DNA of 64,000 nucleotides from Gammaproteobacteria bacterium (GTDB taxonomy: Bacteria; Pseudomonadota; Gammaproteobacteria; JABHGC01): assembly GCA_027077805.1 (NCBI GenBank), contig JALWTS010000041.1:73234-137233 (forward strand), read 5' to 3'. Each line of letters begins with the position of its first letter. Positions within the stretch are counted from its first letter, which is position 1. This document shows positions 6,852 to 64,000 of this stretch, piece by piece. A program made the position numbers and the translations under genes. The notes under the pieces are model-generated. The model was not told where the DNA came from. It searched no databases and saw only the letters and a program-made list of their open reading frames with translations.

Positions 6852-7925
6852 ATGTATCAATGGTATTTCAGTCGTAATGGTCAACAAACGGGTCCTTTTA
6901 ACCAAGACCAAGCCAAAGCCCAAGCAATGATTAATCCAGAAGGTTATGCTTGGCGAGAAGGGTTTGCGGAATGGGTTCCAATTCGTGAGGTTGGCGAATT
7001 AAATGGGCAAGCACCCGCACCTAGTCCTAACCAAAATCAAAATCAAAATTTCAACCTAAACCAAAATTCCAACCAAAATCGAAACCTAGATAGTTTTTCC
7101 CCATCATTAGCATCAAGTTCACAATCCTCAGATGTGATTGACTTTAAAATTATTGGCAATGAAATGCAGTTTGTAGAAGTTGAACTTGATCCAGAGGAAA
7201 GTGCGGTGGCAGAAGCAGGTGCGATGATGTACAAGCATCCGCAAGTTGAAATGGAAAGTGTGTTTGGTGATGGCTCGAAACAAAGTCAAAGTAATAGTTT
7301 TTTTGGTAATTTATTAGGGGCTGGTCAACGTTTAATCACAGGGGAAAGTTTATTTACTACTGTGTTTACTCACAAAGGATCAGGTAAAGCCCATGTGGCA
7401 TTTGCCGCCCCTTATCCAGGGAATATCATCCCGATTATGTTACCTAATGTGGGCGGAACATTAATCTGTCAAAAAGATAGCTTTTTATGTGCGGCTAAAG
7501 GCGTGTCCATTGGTTTGCATTTTCAAAGAAAAATTTTGACAGGTTTATTTGGTGGCGAAGGCTTTATTATGCAAAAACTTGAAGGGGATGGTTTAGTCTT
7601 TGTGCATGCAGGTGGGACAGTTGTGGAACGAGTATTAAATATGGGTGAAACCTTACATGTGGATACGGGTTGTGTGGTTGCGATGGAAGCCAGTGTTGAT
7701 TTTGATATTCAAAAAGCGGGGGGCATTAAAACCATGTTATTTGGTGGTGAGGGTTTATTTTTTGCGACCTTGCAAGGACCGGGTAAAATCTGGTTGCAAT
7801 CCCTACCCTTTTCACGTTTGGCAGGACGAATGTTAGCAGCGGCACCACAAACAAGCGGATTTACGCAGGGTGAAGGTTCAATTTTAGGTAATGTTGGCGG
7901 ATTTTTAGATGGGGATAATTTTTAA
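6852..7925 (+). CDS. AIM24 family protein (TIGR00266/DUF124) with an N-terminal GYF-like (DUF4339) domain and a poly-Asn/Gln linker
   Basis: N-terminus is WYFSRNGQQTGPF...GYAWREGFAEWVPIREVGEL (GYF-like). The C-terminal 250 aa (FKIIGNEMQFVEVELD...GEGLFFATLQGPGKIWLQSLPFSRLA) matches the AIM24 family. Confidence 0.65.
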   Translation: MYQWYFSRNGQQTGPFNQDQAKAQAMINPEGYAWREGFAEWVPIREVGELNGQAPAPSPNQNQNQNFNLNQNSNQNRNLDSFSPSLASSSQSSDVIDFKIIGNEMQFVEVELDPEESAVAEAGAMMYKHPQVEMESVFGDGSKQSQSNSFFGNLLGAGQRLITGESLFTTVFTHKGSGKAHVAFAAPYPGNIIPIMLPNVGGTLICQKDSFLCAAKGVSIGLHFQRKILTGLFGGEGFIMQKLEGDGLVFVHAGGTVVERVLNMGETLHVDTGCVVAMEASVDFDIQKAGGIKTMLFGGEGLFFATLQGPGKIWLQSLPFSRLAGRMLAAAPQTSGFTQGEGSILGNVGGFLDGDNF

Positions 7926-7936
7926 GCCACTCCTCA

Positions 7937-8869
7937 CTAGAAATCCCGCCCAAAACTCTCTTTAAATCGAACACTAAGCTCATCAAAATTAATACAATGA
8001 TTTTGGGTGCCAGGTTGTTCGATTTTAATCGCCCCCATTAATGCCGCTAAACGCCCTGTGGTTTCCCAATCTAATTGATGTTTTAAACCATAAAGCAATC
8101 CTGCCCGATACGCATCCCCACAACCTGTGGGGTCTTCTAAACGTTGGGTTTTTGCCACTGGAATTGCAATGTCTTTGCCTTGAGTATAAATCACCGAACC
8201 TTCAGAGCCTTTGGTAATAATCAATGCCTTTACTTGTTTAGCAATGTGCTCTAAAGATAATTCGGTGGTTTGTTGTAACATTTGTGATTCATAATCATTT
8301 AGGGTAATCCAAGTGGCTTGTTGAATAAATGTTAATAACTCGGGTTTGCCAAACATTGGCATTGCTTGCCCCGGATCAAAGATAAATGGAATGCCTGCTT
8401 CTACAAATTGCTGGGCATGTTCAATCATGCCATCTCGACCATCGGGTGATATAATCCCTAATTCAATGCCCCCATCTTCAGGAATTTGGTTTTCTTCCGC
8501 GTAACTCATCGCCCCTGGGTGAAAAGCCGTAATCTGATTATCATCTAAGTCAGTGGTAATATAGGCTTGAGCTGTATAGGCTTGTTCGATAATCCGAATA
8601 TAATCTTGCGAAATTTTATTTTCTAACATCCATGTTTGATAAGGCGAAAAATCATGCCCCACCGTTGCCATTGGTTTGGCATCCGTTTCTAACAAATGCA
8701 GATTATAAGCAATATTCCCCGCACAGCCACCAAATTCACGCCGTAGTTTTGGTACCATAAACGAGACATTTAGAATATGAACTTTTTCGGGCAAAATATG
8801 ATTTCTAAAATGATCATTAAATACCATGATCGTGTCATATGCAATTGAACCACAAACTAAAATACTCAT
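7937..8869 (-). CDS. PfkB-family carbohydrate/nucleoside kinase (adenosine kinase-like)
   Basis: N-terminus is SILVCGSIAYDTIM...GGCAGNIAYNL. The C-terminal PfkB signature DPTGCGDAYRAG is present. Confidence 0.7.
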   Translation of the reverse strand: MSILVCGSIAYDTIMVFNDHFRNHILPEKVHILNVSFMVPKLRREFGGCAGNIAYNLHLLETDAKPMATVGHDFSPYQTWMLENKISQDYIRIIEQAYTAQAYITTDLDDNQITAFHPGAMSYAEENQIPEDGGIELGIISPDGRDGMIEHAQQFVEAGIPFIFDPGQAMPMFGKPELLTFIQQATWITLNDYESQMLQQTTELSLEHIAKQVKALIITKGSEGSVIYTQGKDIAIPVAKTQRLEDPTGCGDAYRAGLLYGLKHQLDWETTGRLAALMGAIKIEQPGTQNHCINFDELSVRFKESFGRDF

Positions 8870-9244
8870 CTACCAATATCCTAACTCATTAAAAATTAAT
8901 ATCCAAACCATAAACGCAAAACTCACTGCCAGTAACACTGCGGCTGATCCAATATCTTTCGCCCGTCCTGATAATTCATGACGTTGTCCACCAAATCTAT
9001 CCACCACTGCCTCAATCGCAGAATTAATTAATTCGACTATCATCACCAATAGCCAACTGCCAATTAATAAGGCTTGTTGTAATCCCGTCTCACCAAAATA
9101 AATGGCACTAGGTATGACTGGCAACAAAATCAAACACTCTAAACGAAAGGCTTCTTCATTTTTCCATGCCGATTTTAAGCCCTGATACGAATAAATCATA
9201 GCATAAAATAAACGTTTAAACCCGGTATTACCCGGTTTCATCAT
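8870..9244 (-). CDS. dgkA: Diacylglycerol kinase
   Basis: Strong similarity to E. coli DgkA throughout (…[37 protein letters not shown]…). The start is taken at the MMKPGNTGF Met rather than the longer ORF start. Confidence 0.8.
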
Positions 9245-58266: not shown

Positions 58267-59415
58267 ATGCCTAAAGAAATACCTAAAAATTCCGTGGGTA
58301 TTGTTGAAGATAAAATTCAACATTTTAGCCAAGCACTCACCCTAGTATGCGGTCGAGAACTGCCTGAATATGATATTGCCTATGAAACCTATGGGACTTT
58401 AAATGCGACTGCAACGAATGCCGTATTAATTTGCCATGCCTTGTCAGGTGATCATCATGCGGCGGGTTATCATAGTATGAAAGATAAAAAACCGGGTTGG
58501 TGGGAAAATTGTATTGGACCAAATAAACCCATTGATACCAATAAATTTTTTGTGGTTTGTAGCAATACCTTAGGACACTGTAAAGGATCAACTGGCCCTG
58601 CTTCAATTAACCCTAGTACGGGTAAATTTTATGGCCCTGATTTTCCTATTGTTACCGTTAAAGACTGGGTGAATAGCCAGGTGCGACTGAGTCATGCCTT
58701 AGGTATTCAGCAATGGGCAGCGATTATTGGGGGGAGTTTAGGTGGCATGCAAGTATTGCAGTGGGCGATTGATTACCCTGATTACTTAAAACATGCGGTG
58801 ATTATTGCAGCAGCCCCTAAATTATCCGCACAAAATATTGCCTTTAATGAGGTGGCTAGACAAGCGATTTTATCCGATCCTGATTTTTACGAAGGCCATT
58901 ATTACCAACATGGTGTGGTACCCAAACGAGGCTTAATGCTAGCGAGAATGCTAGGTCATATTACCTATTTATCCGATGATAGTATGCGTTCTAAATTTGG
59001 TCGTGAGTTACGTCAAGGCAAAATCAATTATAGCTATGAAGTAGAATTTCAAGTAGAAAGTTATTTACGCTATCAAGGACAATCCTTTGTTGATAGATTT
59101 GATGCTAATAGTTATTTATTAATGACTAAAGCCTTAGATTATTTTGATCCTGCCAGTGATTATCAAGACAACTTAGCCACGGCCTTAGCTAAAGCGAGTG
59201 CGGATTTTTTATTAATCTCGTTTACTAGTGATTGGCGTTTTTCACCTGAGCGTTCCCAAGAAATTCTGCAAGCCCTAATTGCCAATAATCAAAATGTCAG
59301 TTATCTAGCAGTAGAAGCCACCCAAGGTCATGACGCTTTTTTAATGCCCCTGCCACAGTATATCAAGGCATTTACCCATTATATGCAACGCATTGCCCAA
59401 CAAATAGGTGACTAA
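58267..59415 (+). CDS. metX: Homoserine O-acyltransferase
   Basis: …[16 protein letters not shown]…[13 protein letters not shown]… alpha/beta hydrolase MetX. Confidence 0.9.
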
Positions 59416-60029
59416 TGGTTAACAACGGCTTACGCATTGATTTTGAGAAAATTATCCAATGGATACCACCACAATCACGAGTCTTGGATTTAGGCTGTGG
59501 TGATGGGCAATTGCTCGCAAAATTACAACAACAAAAACGGGTTACAGGCTATGGCTTAGAAATTAATCCAGATAAAGTTGTTGAATCTATTGACACTGGA
59601 ATCAATGTCATCCATATGGATTTAGATAATCTACAACTAAGTTTAGGGCAATTTCTGGATCAATCCTTTGATTATGTGATTATGTCGCAAACTTTACAAG
59701 CGACTTACCATCCTGCGGATTTATTGGAAGAAATCGTTAGAATTGGCAAAACGGGCATTGTTACCTTCCCTAATTTTGGTTATTGGCCTAATCGCTTTCA
59801 GTTATTTTTTCAAGGCAAAATGCCCATATCTAAAGCCTTACCTTATCAATGGTATAATACTCCCAATATTCATTTATGTACCTTCAAGGATTTTGAAATC
59901 TTATGCCAAAGTAAAAATATTCAAATTCTCGATCGTACCGTAGTGGATTTTGCGCATCGTAAAACCATTACATTTATGCCAAATTTATTTGGTGAAATTG
60001 TCTTGTATCAAATTAAATCGATCCAATAA
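59415..60029 (+). CDS. metW: Methionine biosynthesis protein MetW
   Basis: …RVLDLGCGDGQLL… methyltransferase-like domain immediately after metX. Confidence 0.85.
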   Translation: MVNNGLRIDFEKIIQWIPPQSRVLDLGCGDGQLLAKLQQQKRVTGYGLEINPDKVVESIDTGINVIHMDLDNLQLSLGQFLDQSFDYVIMSQTLQATYHPADLLEEIVRIGKTGIVTFPNFGYWPNRFQLFFQGKMPISKALPYQWYNTPNIHLCTFKDFEILCQSKNIQILDRTVVDFAHRKTITFMPNLFGEIVLYQIKSIQ

Positions 60030-60032
60030 TCA

Positions 60033-60906
60033 TTATTTAATTGATTTTTTATATTTTTTGGGAATTTCTCTTAAAAATCGTGAGGCTTTTTGTGTTTGAT
60101 AAATGCTACCATAAGTCATACGATATTTTGCACAAGTTAAATACAATTGTTGCATGGCCCTAGTCATACCCACATAACATAAACGCCGTTCTTCTTCTAA
60201 TTGCTTTGCTTCTTGGCTACAGGCATAATGTGGAAACAGTCCTTCCGCCATTCCCACCATAAATACGACTGAAAATTCCAAACCTTTGGCAGCATGAATG
60301 GTCATCAACTGTACTTTCACTAAAGGATCGTTCACACCTACGGTTGTTTCGCTGGTATCTACAACCACATGGGCTAAAAAATAATCTCGTTCACTCGTCG
60401 CAATGTCTTTATCCTCTGGAAATTCAAATTGTGTCGTTGCATTGACTAATTCTTGTAAATTCGCCACCCGATTTTGGGTTACAGAATCTTTTAAACTGGC
60501 AAAATGTTCTAATAAACCGCTGTCTTAAATCACCGTATCCACTTGGGCTTCTAAACTTAAACCCATGACTTTTTGTTGCATATCAGTAATTAACTGGCAA
60601 AAATTTGCAATAGCATTGACAGCCCGTTTGGTCAAAACTTTAGTTCCACCTAATGTCATTCCTGCTTGCCATAATGAACACTTATGTTCATTGGCATATT
60701 GTTGCATTTTAGCCAAAGTCGTTTTGCCAATCCCTCTAGGCGGATGATTAATCACTCGTTCAAAAGCAGTATTATTATCAGGATTCGATAATAATTGTAA
60801 ATACGCCAAGGTATCTTTGACTTCTGCCCGTTCAAAGTTTCATCGGTGCGGTAACCGCTTCTCTTTGTTTTTGATTGAGAGAATTGATACTATATGAAAT
60901 ATCCAT
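60033..60906 (-). pseudogene. Decayed UvrD/Rep-family DNA helicase gene (large internal deletion, frameshift and in-frame TAA)
   Basis: Minus-strand start MDISYSINSLNQKQREAVTAP (UvrD residues 1-21) is fused out of frame to a region matching UvrD at about residue 300 (…ERAEVKDTLAYLQLLSNPDNNTAFERVINHPPRGIGKTTL…). There is an in-frame TAA at 60527-60525 where UvrD has VIKDSGL, and then the C-terminal …LMTIHAAKGLEFSVVF…EEERRLCYVGMTRA…SRFLREIP. The Walker A region is absent. Confidence 0.6.
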
Positions 60907-60956: not shown

Positions 60957-61955
<999 letters not shown>

Positions 61956-61956
61956 G

Positions 61957-62796
61957 TTATTGCGACCATTGTCGTTTCGCTTTCCCTGTATATTCAATCT
62001 GCTCACAACTAAAGGGAAAAAATGTCGCTTCAGGCTGTGAAACCGTATCTTTAAAACAAGGAAACATACCCGCAGCAAAGCAAAGAGTGATGTATAAATT
62101 ATAATCTTGTACACTCATGCCTTGATCCGCCGCTAAAGCAGCCAATAAACCTGCCACATTCATATAAATTTTGTGATGTTTAAGTTTGAATAAAACTTGC
62201 TCAATGGCAAAGGCTAATTTGACATATTCGCCTTGATCTAAGGCTAATTCTTGAGCGAATTGCATCACAGCTTGAATACGTTCATCAGTACGAATCAGAG
62301 GACGACCATAGCCTGCAATAATTTTATGCTGTTGAATTTCTAAATTAACGAGTTCGGTTAAATCTTTGCCTTGATCATAGTCAGGTTTAATACGATACAA
62401 AAAATCAATGGCTTTGGTCATAGGACAACCACCATAAATTTCAGCTTGTGATACTGCCACACCGGCACTAATCCCTAAGGCAGCGGTACTTCTGACCGTA
62501 CCTGCTAAGGCTACTACTCGATTATTCCATAAACGCAATTCAGGATAACTGGTAGATAATACCCATAAGCGTTCAAATAACCTTTGTTGTTTTTCGGTAG
62601 GAATTTTGCCTGTAATACCATATAACAATAATCCCATCCACGATAAATGATGTAATTCGGTTAATAAATCTTTACCCCGAAACACCACTCGTTCGCCAGC
62701 AAACCATGCCCCAATATCGGTTCGCCATTGTTGTTGAGCTTGGGATAATTGTTCAACTTTAGTCATTGATTTCATCCTGATTTCGTTTGGGATCAT
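61957..62796 (-). CDS. Short citrate synthase-fold protein (catalytic His/Asp not conserved)
   Basis: …LLLYGITGKIPTEKQQRLFERL… and …GYGRPLIRTDERI…NVAGLLAALAADQGM… align with the citrate synthase motifs LLLHGELPT, GYGHAVLRKTDPR and NVDAHSG. The expected His is Arg and the expected Asp is Ala. Confidence 0.5.
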   Translation of the reverse strand: MIPNEIRMKSMTKVEQLSQAQQQWRTDIGAWFAGERVVFRGKDLLTELHHLSWMGLLLYGITGKIPTEKQQRLFERLWVLSTSYPELRLWNNRVVALAGTVRSTAALGISAGVAVSQAEIYGGCPMTKAIDFLYRIKPDYDQGKDLTELVNLEIQQHKIIAGYGRPLIRTDERIQAVMQFAQELALDQGEYVKLAFAIEQVLFKLKHHKIYMNVAGLLAALAADQGMSVQDYNLYITLCFAAGMFPCFKDTVSQPEATFFPFSCEQIEYTGKAKRQWSQ

Positions 62797-63574
62797 TCAC
62801 TACATCAATTTTACCTGCAAAAAAGGGATACTGTGCCCAACCTAATTGCCGTTGTTCTAGGGCATGAACTGCGGCCCCAGGTAAACGTAGTAGCAAATAC
62901 AACATTTCGCCCTGTTCAGGATTAAAGCCTAAATCACTTAAAGCAGCCGCTGCCACACCACTCATCGCTAAGGGACATTGTGCCCATTGTTCTAATTGCC
63001 CTTGTTGTTGTTGCAAGCAAAGTAAATATTCACCTACCTGACAATCCACTAAAACAGCCAACGTTTGTTGTACGGGTTGGGCACAAGTATTGGCATAAGG
63101 ATCAAAGCCCATAGGATGTTCTGCTTCTGGCCAAACATCGGCTTGAGTGGCTGATTTGGGCTGTGATAAATATTGTTGCCATAACGCCAACGATAAACCA
63201 CAGTGTTGCCAAGCCTGCATGGCTAATAATACTTCTCTAGCTCCAGCAACCGAACCTGCCCCAACGCCTAAGGCAGCCATTAAACAAGCCGCACTACTAG
63301 ACCCACCAACGCCGCCATTCATAGCGGCTCTTACGCTATAATCTCTTGGCCCAGCATTGGCTAAAGCGATGGCTAATTTTTCTAATAACCTAGCTTGCTT
63401 GGCAGTTGGCAGTTCTAATTGAAACAACAAAAATAAATACTCAATCCAACTGGCATTGGGCAAAATATCTTGATATACATTGTAGCCACTACAATAACAG
63501 CTATCTGCCATAAATGGATGCTTGGTTTGGGCGTGTTCTTGCCAGATTTTAGTTTTAATGGTTTCTAGTTTCAT
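62759..63574 (-). CDS. Short citrate synthase-fold protein, paralog of the downstream gene
   Basis: …YLFLLFQLELPTAKQARLLEKL… and …NGGVGGSSSAACLMAALGVGAGSVAGAREVLLAM… align with the citrate synthase …HADHEQNASTSTVR…GPLHGGANEA… region without the His. It overlaps the next gene by 38 nt. Confidence 0.35.
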   Translation of the reverse strand: MKLETIKTKIWQEHAQTKHPFMADSCYCSGYNVYQDILPNASWIEYLFLLFQLELPTAKQARLLEKLAIALANAGPRDYSVRAAMNGGVGGSSSAACLMAALGVGAGSVAGAREVLLAMQAWQHCGLSLALWQQYLSQPKSATQADVWPEAEHPMGFDPYANTCAQPVQQTLAVLVDCQVGEYLLCLQQQQGQLEQWAQCPLAMSGVAAAALSDLGFNPEQGEMLYLLLRLPGAAVHALEQRQLGWAQYPFFAGKIDVVNDPKRNQDEIND

Positions 63575-63586
63575 TATAATGATTGT

Positions 63587-64000
63587 TTACTGTTGATCTC
63601 GGGTTAAAGTTTTTATTCTTACGCCCATGGGTGGCACTTCTTCAGGATCAATATGTACATCTAATAAAGTTGGCCCTTGGTGTTGACAAAACGCTTTGAA
63701 ATCCAATGTAACTAAATCTTCAGACGTGCGAATAGAATATCCTTGAGCACCTACTGATCGTGCCATTGCCGCAAAATCAACAGGTGGTAAATCAAAGCCA
63801 ATGGCTTCACCTGTTCCCAAACGTTGTCCATGTTTTACCATACCTAAGGCTTGATCATTTAAAATAATAAAAATTACAGTGAGTTGTTTTTCAATGGCAA
63901 CGGTAATTTCTTGGCCACTCATCAAATAACTACCATCACCTGTAATACATACGACAGGTGTGGATTTTTTTACTGCAGCAGCAATACCAATACTCGCACC
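63587..64000 (-). CDS. Partial CDS (C-terminal part; gene continues past the window end): thiamine-diphosphate-dependent enzyme, acetolactate synthase/benzoylformate decarboxylase family
   Basis: …GASIGIAAAVKKSTPVVCITGDGSYLMSGQEITVAIEKQLTVIFIILNDQALGMV… is the TPP-binding GDG(x)24-27N motif region. Confidence 0.6.
   Translation of the reverse strand, partial: GASIGIAAAVKKSTPVVCITGDGSYLMSGQEITVAIEKQLTVIFIILNDQALGMVKHGQRLGTGEAIGFDLPPVDFAAMARSVGAQGYSIRTSEDLVTLDFKAFCQHQGPTLLDVHIDPEEVPPMGVRIKTLTRDQQ

Follow-up and report, generated by a model that had tools for sequence, protein, structure and literature searches.

A conserved operon encodes two citryl-CoA-lyase-fold paralogs with replaced catalytic residues beside a thiamine diphosphate enzyme

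The stretch of DNA studied here (the window) comprises 64,000 nucleotides of contig JALWTS010000041.1 of a gammaproteobacterium (assembly GCA_027077805.1). Close to its end the window harbours two adjacent genes, named A and B in this text, encoding distant paralogs that share the short fold of citryl-CoA lyase (CCL). The catalytic His-His-Asp residues of citrate synthase and CCL are replaced at all three positions in B and at two or more positions in A. The pair is part of a conserved operon with a thiamine diphosphate (ThDP) enzyme gene, and natural fusions occur between the ThDP enzyme and A as well as between A and B. Because the catalytic residues are lost and the ThDP enzyme is the constant neighbour, mostly accompanied by an outer-membrane receptor and a sensor kinase, A and B are probably parts of an uncharacterised small-molecule pathway, yielding a signal or a metal chelator, and not citrate enzymes. 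The conserved operon and the fusions are new here and show that the odd gene pair belongs to a defined and widespread system.

Both open reading frames (ORFs) are real and located on the minus strand, and the citrate-synthase-type motifs quoted in the original prediction (LLLYGITGKIPTEKQ, GYGRPLIRTDERI, NVAGLLAALAADQGM and GVGAGSVAGAREVLLAM) were all found. Homology of A and B with the citrate-synthase fold is beyond chance. The Citrate_synt profile of Pfam (PF00285), proposed earlier as a check, recognized B (E 3.7e-9, 36.5 bits, gathering cut-off 27) and failed to recognize A (12.1 bits), and the matches were limited to profile positions 142-325 of 357. The best match of both proteins, by sequence as well as by structure, is the solved citryl-CoA lyase 6HXP. 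Single-sequence comparison with 6HXP gave E values of 4.8e-12 (B) and 3.1e-9 (A), and comparison of the family profiles gave 8.6e-10 (B) and 9.6e-12 (A). AlphaFold2 (AF2) monomer models compared with 6HXP by Foldseek showed template modelling (TM) scores of 0.68/0.71 for B and 0.67/0.71 for A. For both models the next structural matches were the CCL module of ATP-citrate lyase and 2-methylcitrate and citrate synthases, including PrpC. With 269 and 271 amino acids the proteins agree in length with the short fold (~260 aa) and not with citrate synthase (~370-430 aa with its N-terminal region). The predicted citrate-synthase fold was thus confirmed, with the short citryl-CoA-lyase form, and not full-length citrate synthase, as the nearest kin.

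Residues at the catalytic positions (pig numbering) were counted in 120 homologues of each family. In B, His274 is replaced by Tyr in 118 sequences and by Phe in 2 (Tyr111 in the window) and His320 by Arg in all 120 (Arg155). The position of Asp375 is occupied by Ala in 107 sequences and by Gly, Thr, Leu or Val in the rest, never by Asp (Ala205). In A, Leu (90/120), Tyr (17/120) or other residues, and never His, are found at the His274 position (Val in the window), while Thr (73/120) or Ser (43/120) take the place of Asp375 (Ser in the window). The His320 position of A holds a variable hydrophobic residue in an ungapped alignment. Two residues downstream of it, His153 is conserved as His in 119 of 120 sequences, and because of this near-invariant residue close by the loss of the second catalytic His in A is uncertain. 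The earlier claim of a replaced triad therefore stands for all three residues of B and for the first and the third of A. At the level of motifs, AHGG, GYGH and NVD of the lyase are aligned to IYGG, GYGR and NVA in B, and to SVAG, AEH (without an aligned His) and AMS in A. The former active-site positions are not drifting. They keep invariant polar residues, a separate set in each family, among which R78, N81, N82, R83, Y111, R155 and R163 in B, and R77, D78, H153, R230, H237 and E240 in A. The Arg329-type DER is retained in B (120/120) and the Arg401-type helix motif LRLPGAAVHALEQ in A (Arg in 120/120).

A and B are distant paralogs (~20 % identity) derived from an ancient duplication. Alignment of the A-family and B-family profiles with hhalign extended over 231 columns with 20 % identity (E 1.7e-5), and A and B of the window gave only a weak BLASTP match with each other. 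The two proteins cover residues 3-251 and 12-226 of a CCL of 268 aa, i.e. nearly the whole enzyme.

A search with the A-family profile in a species-representative genome set yielded 460 confirmed stretches; the operon counts given here refer to the best 80 loci. These loci belong to Gammaproteobacteria (Nitrosococcus, Methylococcales, Chromatiales, Thiotrichales, Cycloclasticus, Porticoccaceae) and Betaproteobacteria (Gallionella, Ferrigenium, Sulfuricella, Nitrosomonadales, Rhodocyclales). In all 80 loci the gene directly before A, read from the same strand, encodes a ThDP enzyme with 40-49 % identity to that of the window, and B follows A in all 76 loci in which the contig continues. Next in the cluster are a TonB-dependent receptor (57 loci), a periplasmic binding protein of the PF04392 family (~50 loci) and a HisKA-receiver-Hpt-GGDEF-EAL protein of ~1500 aa (~35 loci). 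The median gaps are 13 nt between the ThDP enzyme gene and A, 7 nt between A and B and 20 nt between B and the receptor gene. A family-2 O-methyltransferase gene is inserted in 5 loci, at three different cluster positions, and transposase insertions explain further gaps in the cluster. By eye, a RAYT-like gene (REP-associated tyrosine transposase) was seen between the ThDP gene and A in related loci from metagenome-assembled genomes (L006 9174-9710, L010 9228-9764 and L021 9339-9890). In Nitrosococcus oceani a gene for a ThiD-type hydroxymethylpyrimidine/phosphomethylpyrimidine kinase (L003 6035-6838) is divergent from the ThDP gene; a TPP riboswitch was not detected there. An 8-mer enrichment analysis revealed no convincing shared operator, and a plasmid search gave no match. 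Nothing was found in the literature on this cluster or on Noc_1266-1270; a paper on a Caulobacter "citryl-CoA lyase" concerns CitE and is unrelated.

The ThDP enzyme of the window organism has all three TPP domains and retains the Glu that activates the cofactor (RHEAGAAYMAEGYAR) and the metal-binding motif GDG...ND. Among solved structures it is closest to BbmA (285 bits) and CsmA (263 bits), with acetohydroxyacid synthase at 186 bits. It is ~41 % identical to BbmA over the N-terminal part, and the ThDP enzyme of a variant cluster with an SBP_bac_5 binding protein (see below) is 53 % identical to BbmA. Nothing was found in the literature on BbmA or CsmA, the names used being those deposited (PDB 8X3X, 8X3Z). 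With a reconstructed BbmA fragment as query BbmA itself was not recovered, only relatives of 57-60 % identity, two of which have no A/B neighbour. A metagenome scan with a BbmA-like profile yielded a separate set of 80 loci, many of them on short contigs, so that absences there are to be read as lower bounds. In this set ~10 loci have the ThDP enzyme together with an SBP_bac_5 protein and a kinase, 7 have an O-methyltransferase gene beside the ThDP gene and 18 have STAS/RsbW/PP2C partner-switching genes nearby. The entire BbmA-like ThDP clade is linked with signalling genes. A/B-like genes occur in 8 of these loci, 7 of which also carry a TonB receptor, compared to 1 of the 72 others. In L086 (8001-15255), L093, L098, L103, L115 and L122 a BbmA-like gene without A/B is followed by genes for an SBP_bac_5 protein and a large dCache/GAF/PAS histidine kinase, and in loci of this type an O-methyltransferase gene is sometimes found between the BbmA-like gene and the kinase genes.

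Fusion proteins link the three genes in a further way. A full hidden Markov model search with the A profile among 1.84 billion representatives returned 504 proteins, 104 of them at E <= 1e-30. One of the proteins, P0366 (885 aa), is a fusion of the ThDP enzyme with A, and the next gene encodes a B-like protein, 39 % identical to B of the window. Three independent A-B fusions were found as well (P0432, present on 5 contigs, P0447 and P0471), with A first, matching the gene order, and with a ThDP gene adjacent or nearby in the cluster in each case. In the first fusion context the order is ThDP enzyme, SBP_bac_5 binding protein, a 124-aa protein, A-B fusion and dCache-GAF-PAS kinase. In the second, the genes for a dehydrogenase, the A-B fusion and the ThDP enzyme lie opposite a condensation-domain gene and another dehydrogenase gene. 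In the third the ThDP enzyme precedes the A-B fusion, and a TonB receptor, a dehydrogenase and a kinase are encoded on the other strand. Fused variants are adjoined by short-chain dehydrogenases (SDRs) and a condensation-domain gene. The 124-aa protein, whose gene separates those of the SBP_bac_5 protein and the A-B fusion in L089-L091 (e.g. L090 3078-3452), has a CGSHGG...VFNDAG motif and no Pfam match. Its domain is also located N-terminal to an A-like domain in P0452 (411 aa), and it may be a further component of distant variants.

Table 1 Genes of the A/B region in the window
Gene	Position	Strand	Description
hemB	60957..61955	plus	convergent with B
B	61957..62766	minus	269 aa, citryl-CoA-lyase (CCL)-fold protein
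A	62759..63574	minus	271 aa, CCL-fold paralog of B
ThDP enzyme, C-terminal 138 codons	63587..64000	minus	PF02775 E 3.6e-16; gene continues past window end

The positions in the window organism are given in Table 1. The predicted convergence with hemB was borne out, the two stop codons being 1 nt apart. The ORF list gives B as 61957..62796 (279 aa). In the database protein and the homologues translation starts at the third in-frame ATG (62766), with AGGA as Shine-Dalgarno site ~10 nt upstream. With this start A and B overlap by 8 nt (ATGACTAA), which corrects the 38 nt claimed originally. The junction sequence places the stop of the ThDP enzyme gene 12 nt ahead of the A start. The metagenome contig L001, identical to the window, contains the full-length ThDP enzyme gene (7390-9180, 596 aa), and the ThDP enzyme, A and B genes are adjacent and on the same strand (window 61957-64000, L001 7390-10810). 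The gene order on L001 is YfiR-like periplasmic protein, TonB-dependent receptor, ThDP enzyme, A and B. The receptor gene (L001 5160-7334) is located directly upstream of the ThDP gene, beyond the window, and its product is 45-56 % identical to the receptors of other loci. The YfiR-like protein scores 131 bits, against a cut-off of 125, with the NCBIfam model TOL_0243 (NF053591). Neither a PF04392 binding protein nor a kinase-GGDEF-EAL protein is encoded in the 20 kb around these genes. The window organism has a rearranged cluster, with the receptor upstream and the YfiR-like protein replacing the PF04392 protein and the kinase.

Several other features of this region were observed. Just upstream of the YfiR-like gene, also beyond the window, a DUF433/DUF5615 pair of the toxin-antitoxin type was found (L001 3781-4493). 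On the other side of the A/B pair, two ORFs of 144 and 94 aa on the minus strand (60033-60467 and 60525-60809) match only the C-terminal domains of UvrD/Rep-type helicases. They look like a truncated, frameshifted helicase remnant, as there is no space before hemB for the N-terminal ~480 aa. At 58267-60029 a homoserine O-acetyltransferase gene (metX-like, Abhydrolase_1) adjoins metW, the listed ranges sharing base 59415. Ahead of these two, the full contig carries yggT, proC, yggS-like genes and genes for pilT/pilU-like ATPases, and the surroundings of the metX-like gene and metW are an ordinary gammaproteobacterial housekeeping context.

The reading that we favour, with confidence evenly balanced, is that A and B combine as two subunits into a CCL-fold heteromer without Claisen chemistry, which cooperates physically with the ThDP enzyme in making a small molecule recognised by the receptor and the sensor. 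Strict co-occurrence, overlapping genes and natural fusions are indirect evidence of such a putative heteromer attached to the ThDP enzyme. From the fold, the loss of the Claisen residues, the duplication, the linkage with the ThDP enzyme, the fusions, the linkage with receptor and sensing genes and the tailoring genes we infer that such a heteromer exists and that the three proteins together make a small molecule. The ThDP enzyme would join units derived from 2-oxoacids into an α-hydroxy-keto or α-hydroxy-acid intermediate. This intermediate would then be bound by A/B in the remodelled, arginine-rich pocket formerly used for citrate and CoA, and be converted or extended there; that the molecule handled in the former citrate pocket is a ThDP-made tertiary α-hydroxy acid or acyloin is conjecture. 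Tailoring by the O-methyltransferase or a short-chain dehydrogenase might follow in some species. The product, a self-made signal or a metal chelator, would be released, and the TonB-dependent receptor encoded in the same cluster would subsequently bring it back through the outer membrane. In the periplasm it would be read by the binding protein, which would control the histidine kinase-GGDEF-EAL protein and thereby the cyclic di-GMP (c-di-GMP) output. The co-occurrence of A/B with a TonB receptor points to a product altered by A/B, which might for instance add or shape a polycarboxylate or metal-binding part and so make active outer-membrane uptake necessary.

More tentative, and in our judgement more probably wrong than right, is the wider proposal that the ThDP enzyme and A/B constitute a new small-molecule synthase, the product of which is re-imported and read by the binding protein in a quorum-like or chelator-sensing c-di-GMP circuit not recognised before. 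A self-ligand circuit of this kind would be widespread among Gamma- and Betaproteobacteria from the environment (nitrifiers, methanotrophs, oxidisers of iron and sulfur, hydrocarbon degraders), and variants of it would occur in other phyla.

A number of observations weigh against the heteromer and its proposed role in synthesis. The AF2 monomer models are of moderate quality (predicted local distance difference test, pLDDT, 69.8 and 75.3). Many BbmA-like ThDP genes occur without A/B, and A/B is thus not essential to this enzyme class. Locus L088 has the ThDP-A-B trio without a receptor or kinase nearby, and the window organism itself combines a YfiR-like protein with an upstream receptor and has no kinase within 20 kb. 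Distant fused variants, as read by eye, differ at family-invariant residues, e.g. at the Arg401 equivalent of A and at Tyr111 of B, so that the active site is not uniform across the superfamily. An exporter is not conserved in the cluster. No riboswitch was found with Rfam in 7 loci (145 kb). The Fur-box matches ahead of 68 ThDP genes did not surpass those in shuffled sequence. This weakens the idea of an iron siderophore, and such a role is not supported.

The gene-order data fit a catabolic module equally well. In that case the TonB receptor would import a scarce organic acid or a similar compound, the binding protein and the kinase would sense it, and the ThDP enzyme with A/B would degrade it in the cytoplasm, A/B either cleaving a hydroxy-polycarboxylate, or the CoA ester of one, as a lyase or serving as a module that binds it. 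Catabolic genes often have TonB receptors and binding-protein/kinase pairs beside them, cleavage is also catalysed by ThDP enzymes and the CCL fold is a lyase fold. However, the lyase triad is absent, and the trio also occurs without a receptor nearby. Furthermore, no inner-membrane transporter (permease or ABC transporter) is conserved in any cluster version examined, the binding proteins are orphans beside kinases and the accessory genes (family-2 O-methyltransferase, SDR, condensation domain) are of the kind that tailors natural products. These last three points favour synthesis and sensing over uptake and degradation, and we consider a catabolic module unlikely.

It is equally unlikely, in our view, that A/B is catalytically dead and provides regulatory or scaffold subunits of the ThDP enzyme, as the small subunit does for acetohydroxyacid synthase, with an effector (citrate, another carboxylate or CoA) bound in the old active site. 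Loss of the triad in both A and B, the fusions of A to the ThDP enzyme and to B, and retained Arg residues suited to carboxylate binding would agree with this role. The same is true of BbmA and CsmA, which were solved as single named proteins and have many relatives without A/B. However, the association of A/B with the TonB receptor is more easily explained by a changed product chemistry and forms a mild argument for catalysis over pure regulation. Moreover, A and B each conserve polar residues of their own, which suggests more than one simple effector site.

The names given to homologues by NCBI and UniRef would make A a citryl-CoA lyase and B a citrate or 2-methylcitrate synthase, and both proteins do match the NCBIfam citryl-CoA lyase (PRK06224) models weakly. 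These scores stay far under the curated cut-offs (73.1 for B against 212, 53.2 for A against 245), and the best score with an NCBIfam citrate synthase model is 27.8 against 508. Together with the residue counts, which show three catalytic residues replaced in B and at least two in A, they are the grounds on which a canonical lyase or synthase was rejected. No succinyl-CoA-synthetase-like (citryl-CoA synthetase) gene was found in the 80 operon neighbourhoods, a result that applies to the neighbourhoods and not to whole genomes, and the constant neighbour is the ThDP enzyme. With the triad, the curated scores, the partner enzyme and, for citrate synthase, the length all deviating, the database names are likely misleading, and the chance that they are right is very small. 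The family-wide replacement of the triad and the low scores bear out the view of the original prediction that these are non-canonical proteins with a function other than that of citrate synthase or citryl-CoA lyase, and the joint occurrence of A and B and the A-B fusions agree with its suggestion of a possible heteromer. A single canonical citrate synthase gene split by a frameshift into an N-half and a C-half, the case named earlier as refuting the paralog pair and in keeping with adjacent, overlapping genes on one strand, has practically no probability, as each protein spans the CCL fold, A and B align end to end and 76 loci retain them as two distinct genes.

If the favoured reading of A and B as a heteromer working with the ThDP enzyme is true, the citrate-synthase/citryl-CoA-lyase fold has a second, non-Claisen function, and many entries named citryl-CoA lyase or citrate synthase need reannotation. 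Through the operon, a synthase in the cytoplasm would be connected with a receptor in the outer membrane and with c-di-GMP signalling in ecologically important bacteria; Nitrosococcus, Methylococcales, Gallionella-type iron oxidisers, Cycloclasticus and Porticoccus are among the carriers. Cultured carriers are Nitrosococcus oceani (Noc_1266-1268), Methylogaea oryzae and Porticoccus litoralis.

Among known systems, the CCL of Hydrogenobacter thermophilus (6HXP) and the CCL module of ATP-citrate lyase have the same short fold of ~260-270 aa as A and B. The N-terminal YxxGYxxxDL and ELPT segments are common to 6HXP and A/B, and the RxPGxxAHxxEQ helix is also kept in A. However, identities with 6HXP are only 14-20 %, and in place of a single homo-oligomer there are two diverged paralogs, A and B. 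Citryl-CoA lyase works with citryl-CoA synthetase, in the reductive tricarboxylic acid cycle, whereas the partner gene of A/B encodes a ThDP enzyme. Citrate synthase and 2-methylcitrate synthase (PF00285) belong to the same fold superfamily, but A and B are ~100-160 residues shorter and have another genomic context. BbmA and CsmA are closest to the neighbouring ThDP enzyme, although most BbmA-like genes have no A/B neighbour; BbmA relatives also adjoin binding-protein/kinase pairs, and some adjoin A/B and a TonB receptor. By analogy only, acetohydroxyacid synthase can be compared. Its large subunit, a ThDP enzyme belonging to the same superfamily, has a small regulatory subunit encoded by a gene of its own; there the partner is an ACT-domain protein, and here it is a pair of CCL-fold proteins.

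In CqsA/CqsS and LqsA/LqsS, systems of α-hydroxyketone autoinducers, and in PhcB/PhcS the synthase gene is located beside the gene of the sensor kinase that detects its product. α-Hydroxyketones are characteristic products of ThDP enzymes. The enzymes of these systems are unrelated to those described here and, unlike the A/B cluster, the systems have no TonB receptor or binding protein. Periplasmic c-di-GMP control of the YfiBNR type and the TOL_0243/TOL_0244 pair offer another comparison, as the first genes in the operon of the window organism encode a YfiR-like protein and then a TonB receptor. This receptor scores 167 against a cut-off of 645 for TOL_0244 and is therefore not a member of that family, and most other species carry the PF04392 binding protein and the kinase-GGDEF-EAL protein instead of the YfiR-like protein.

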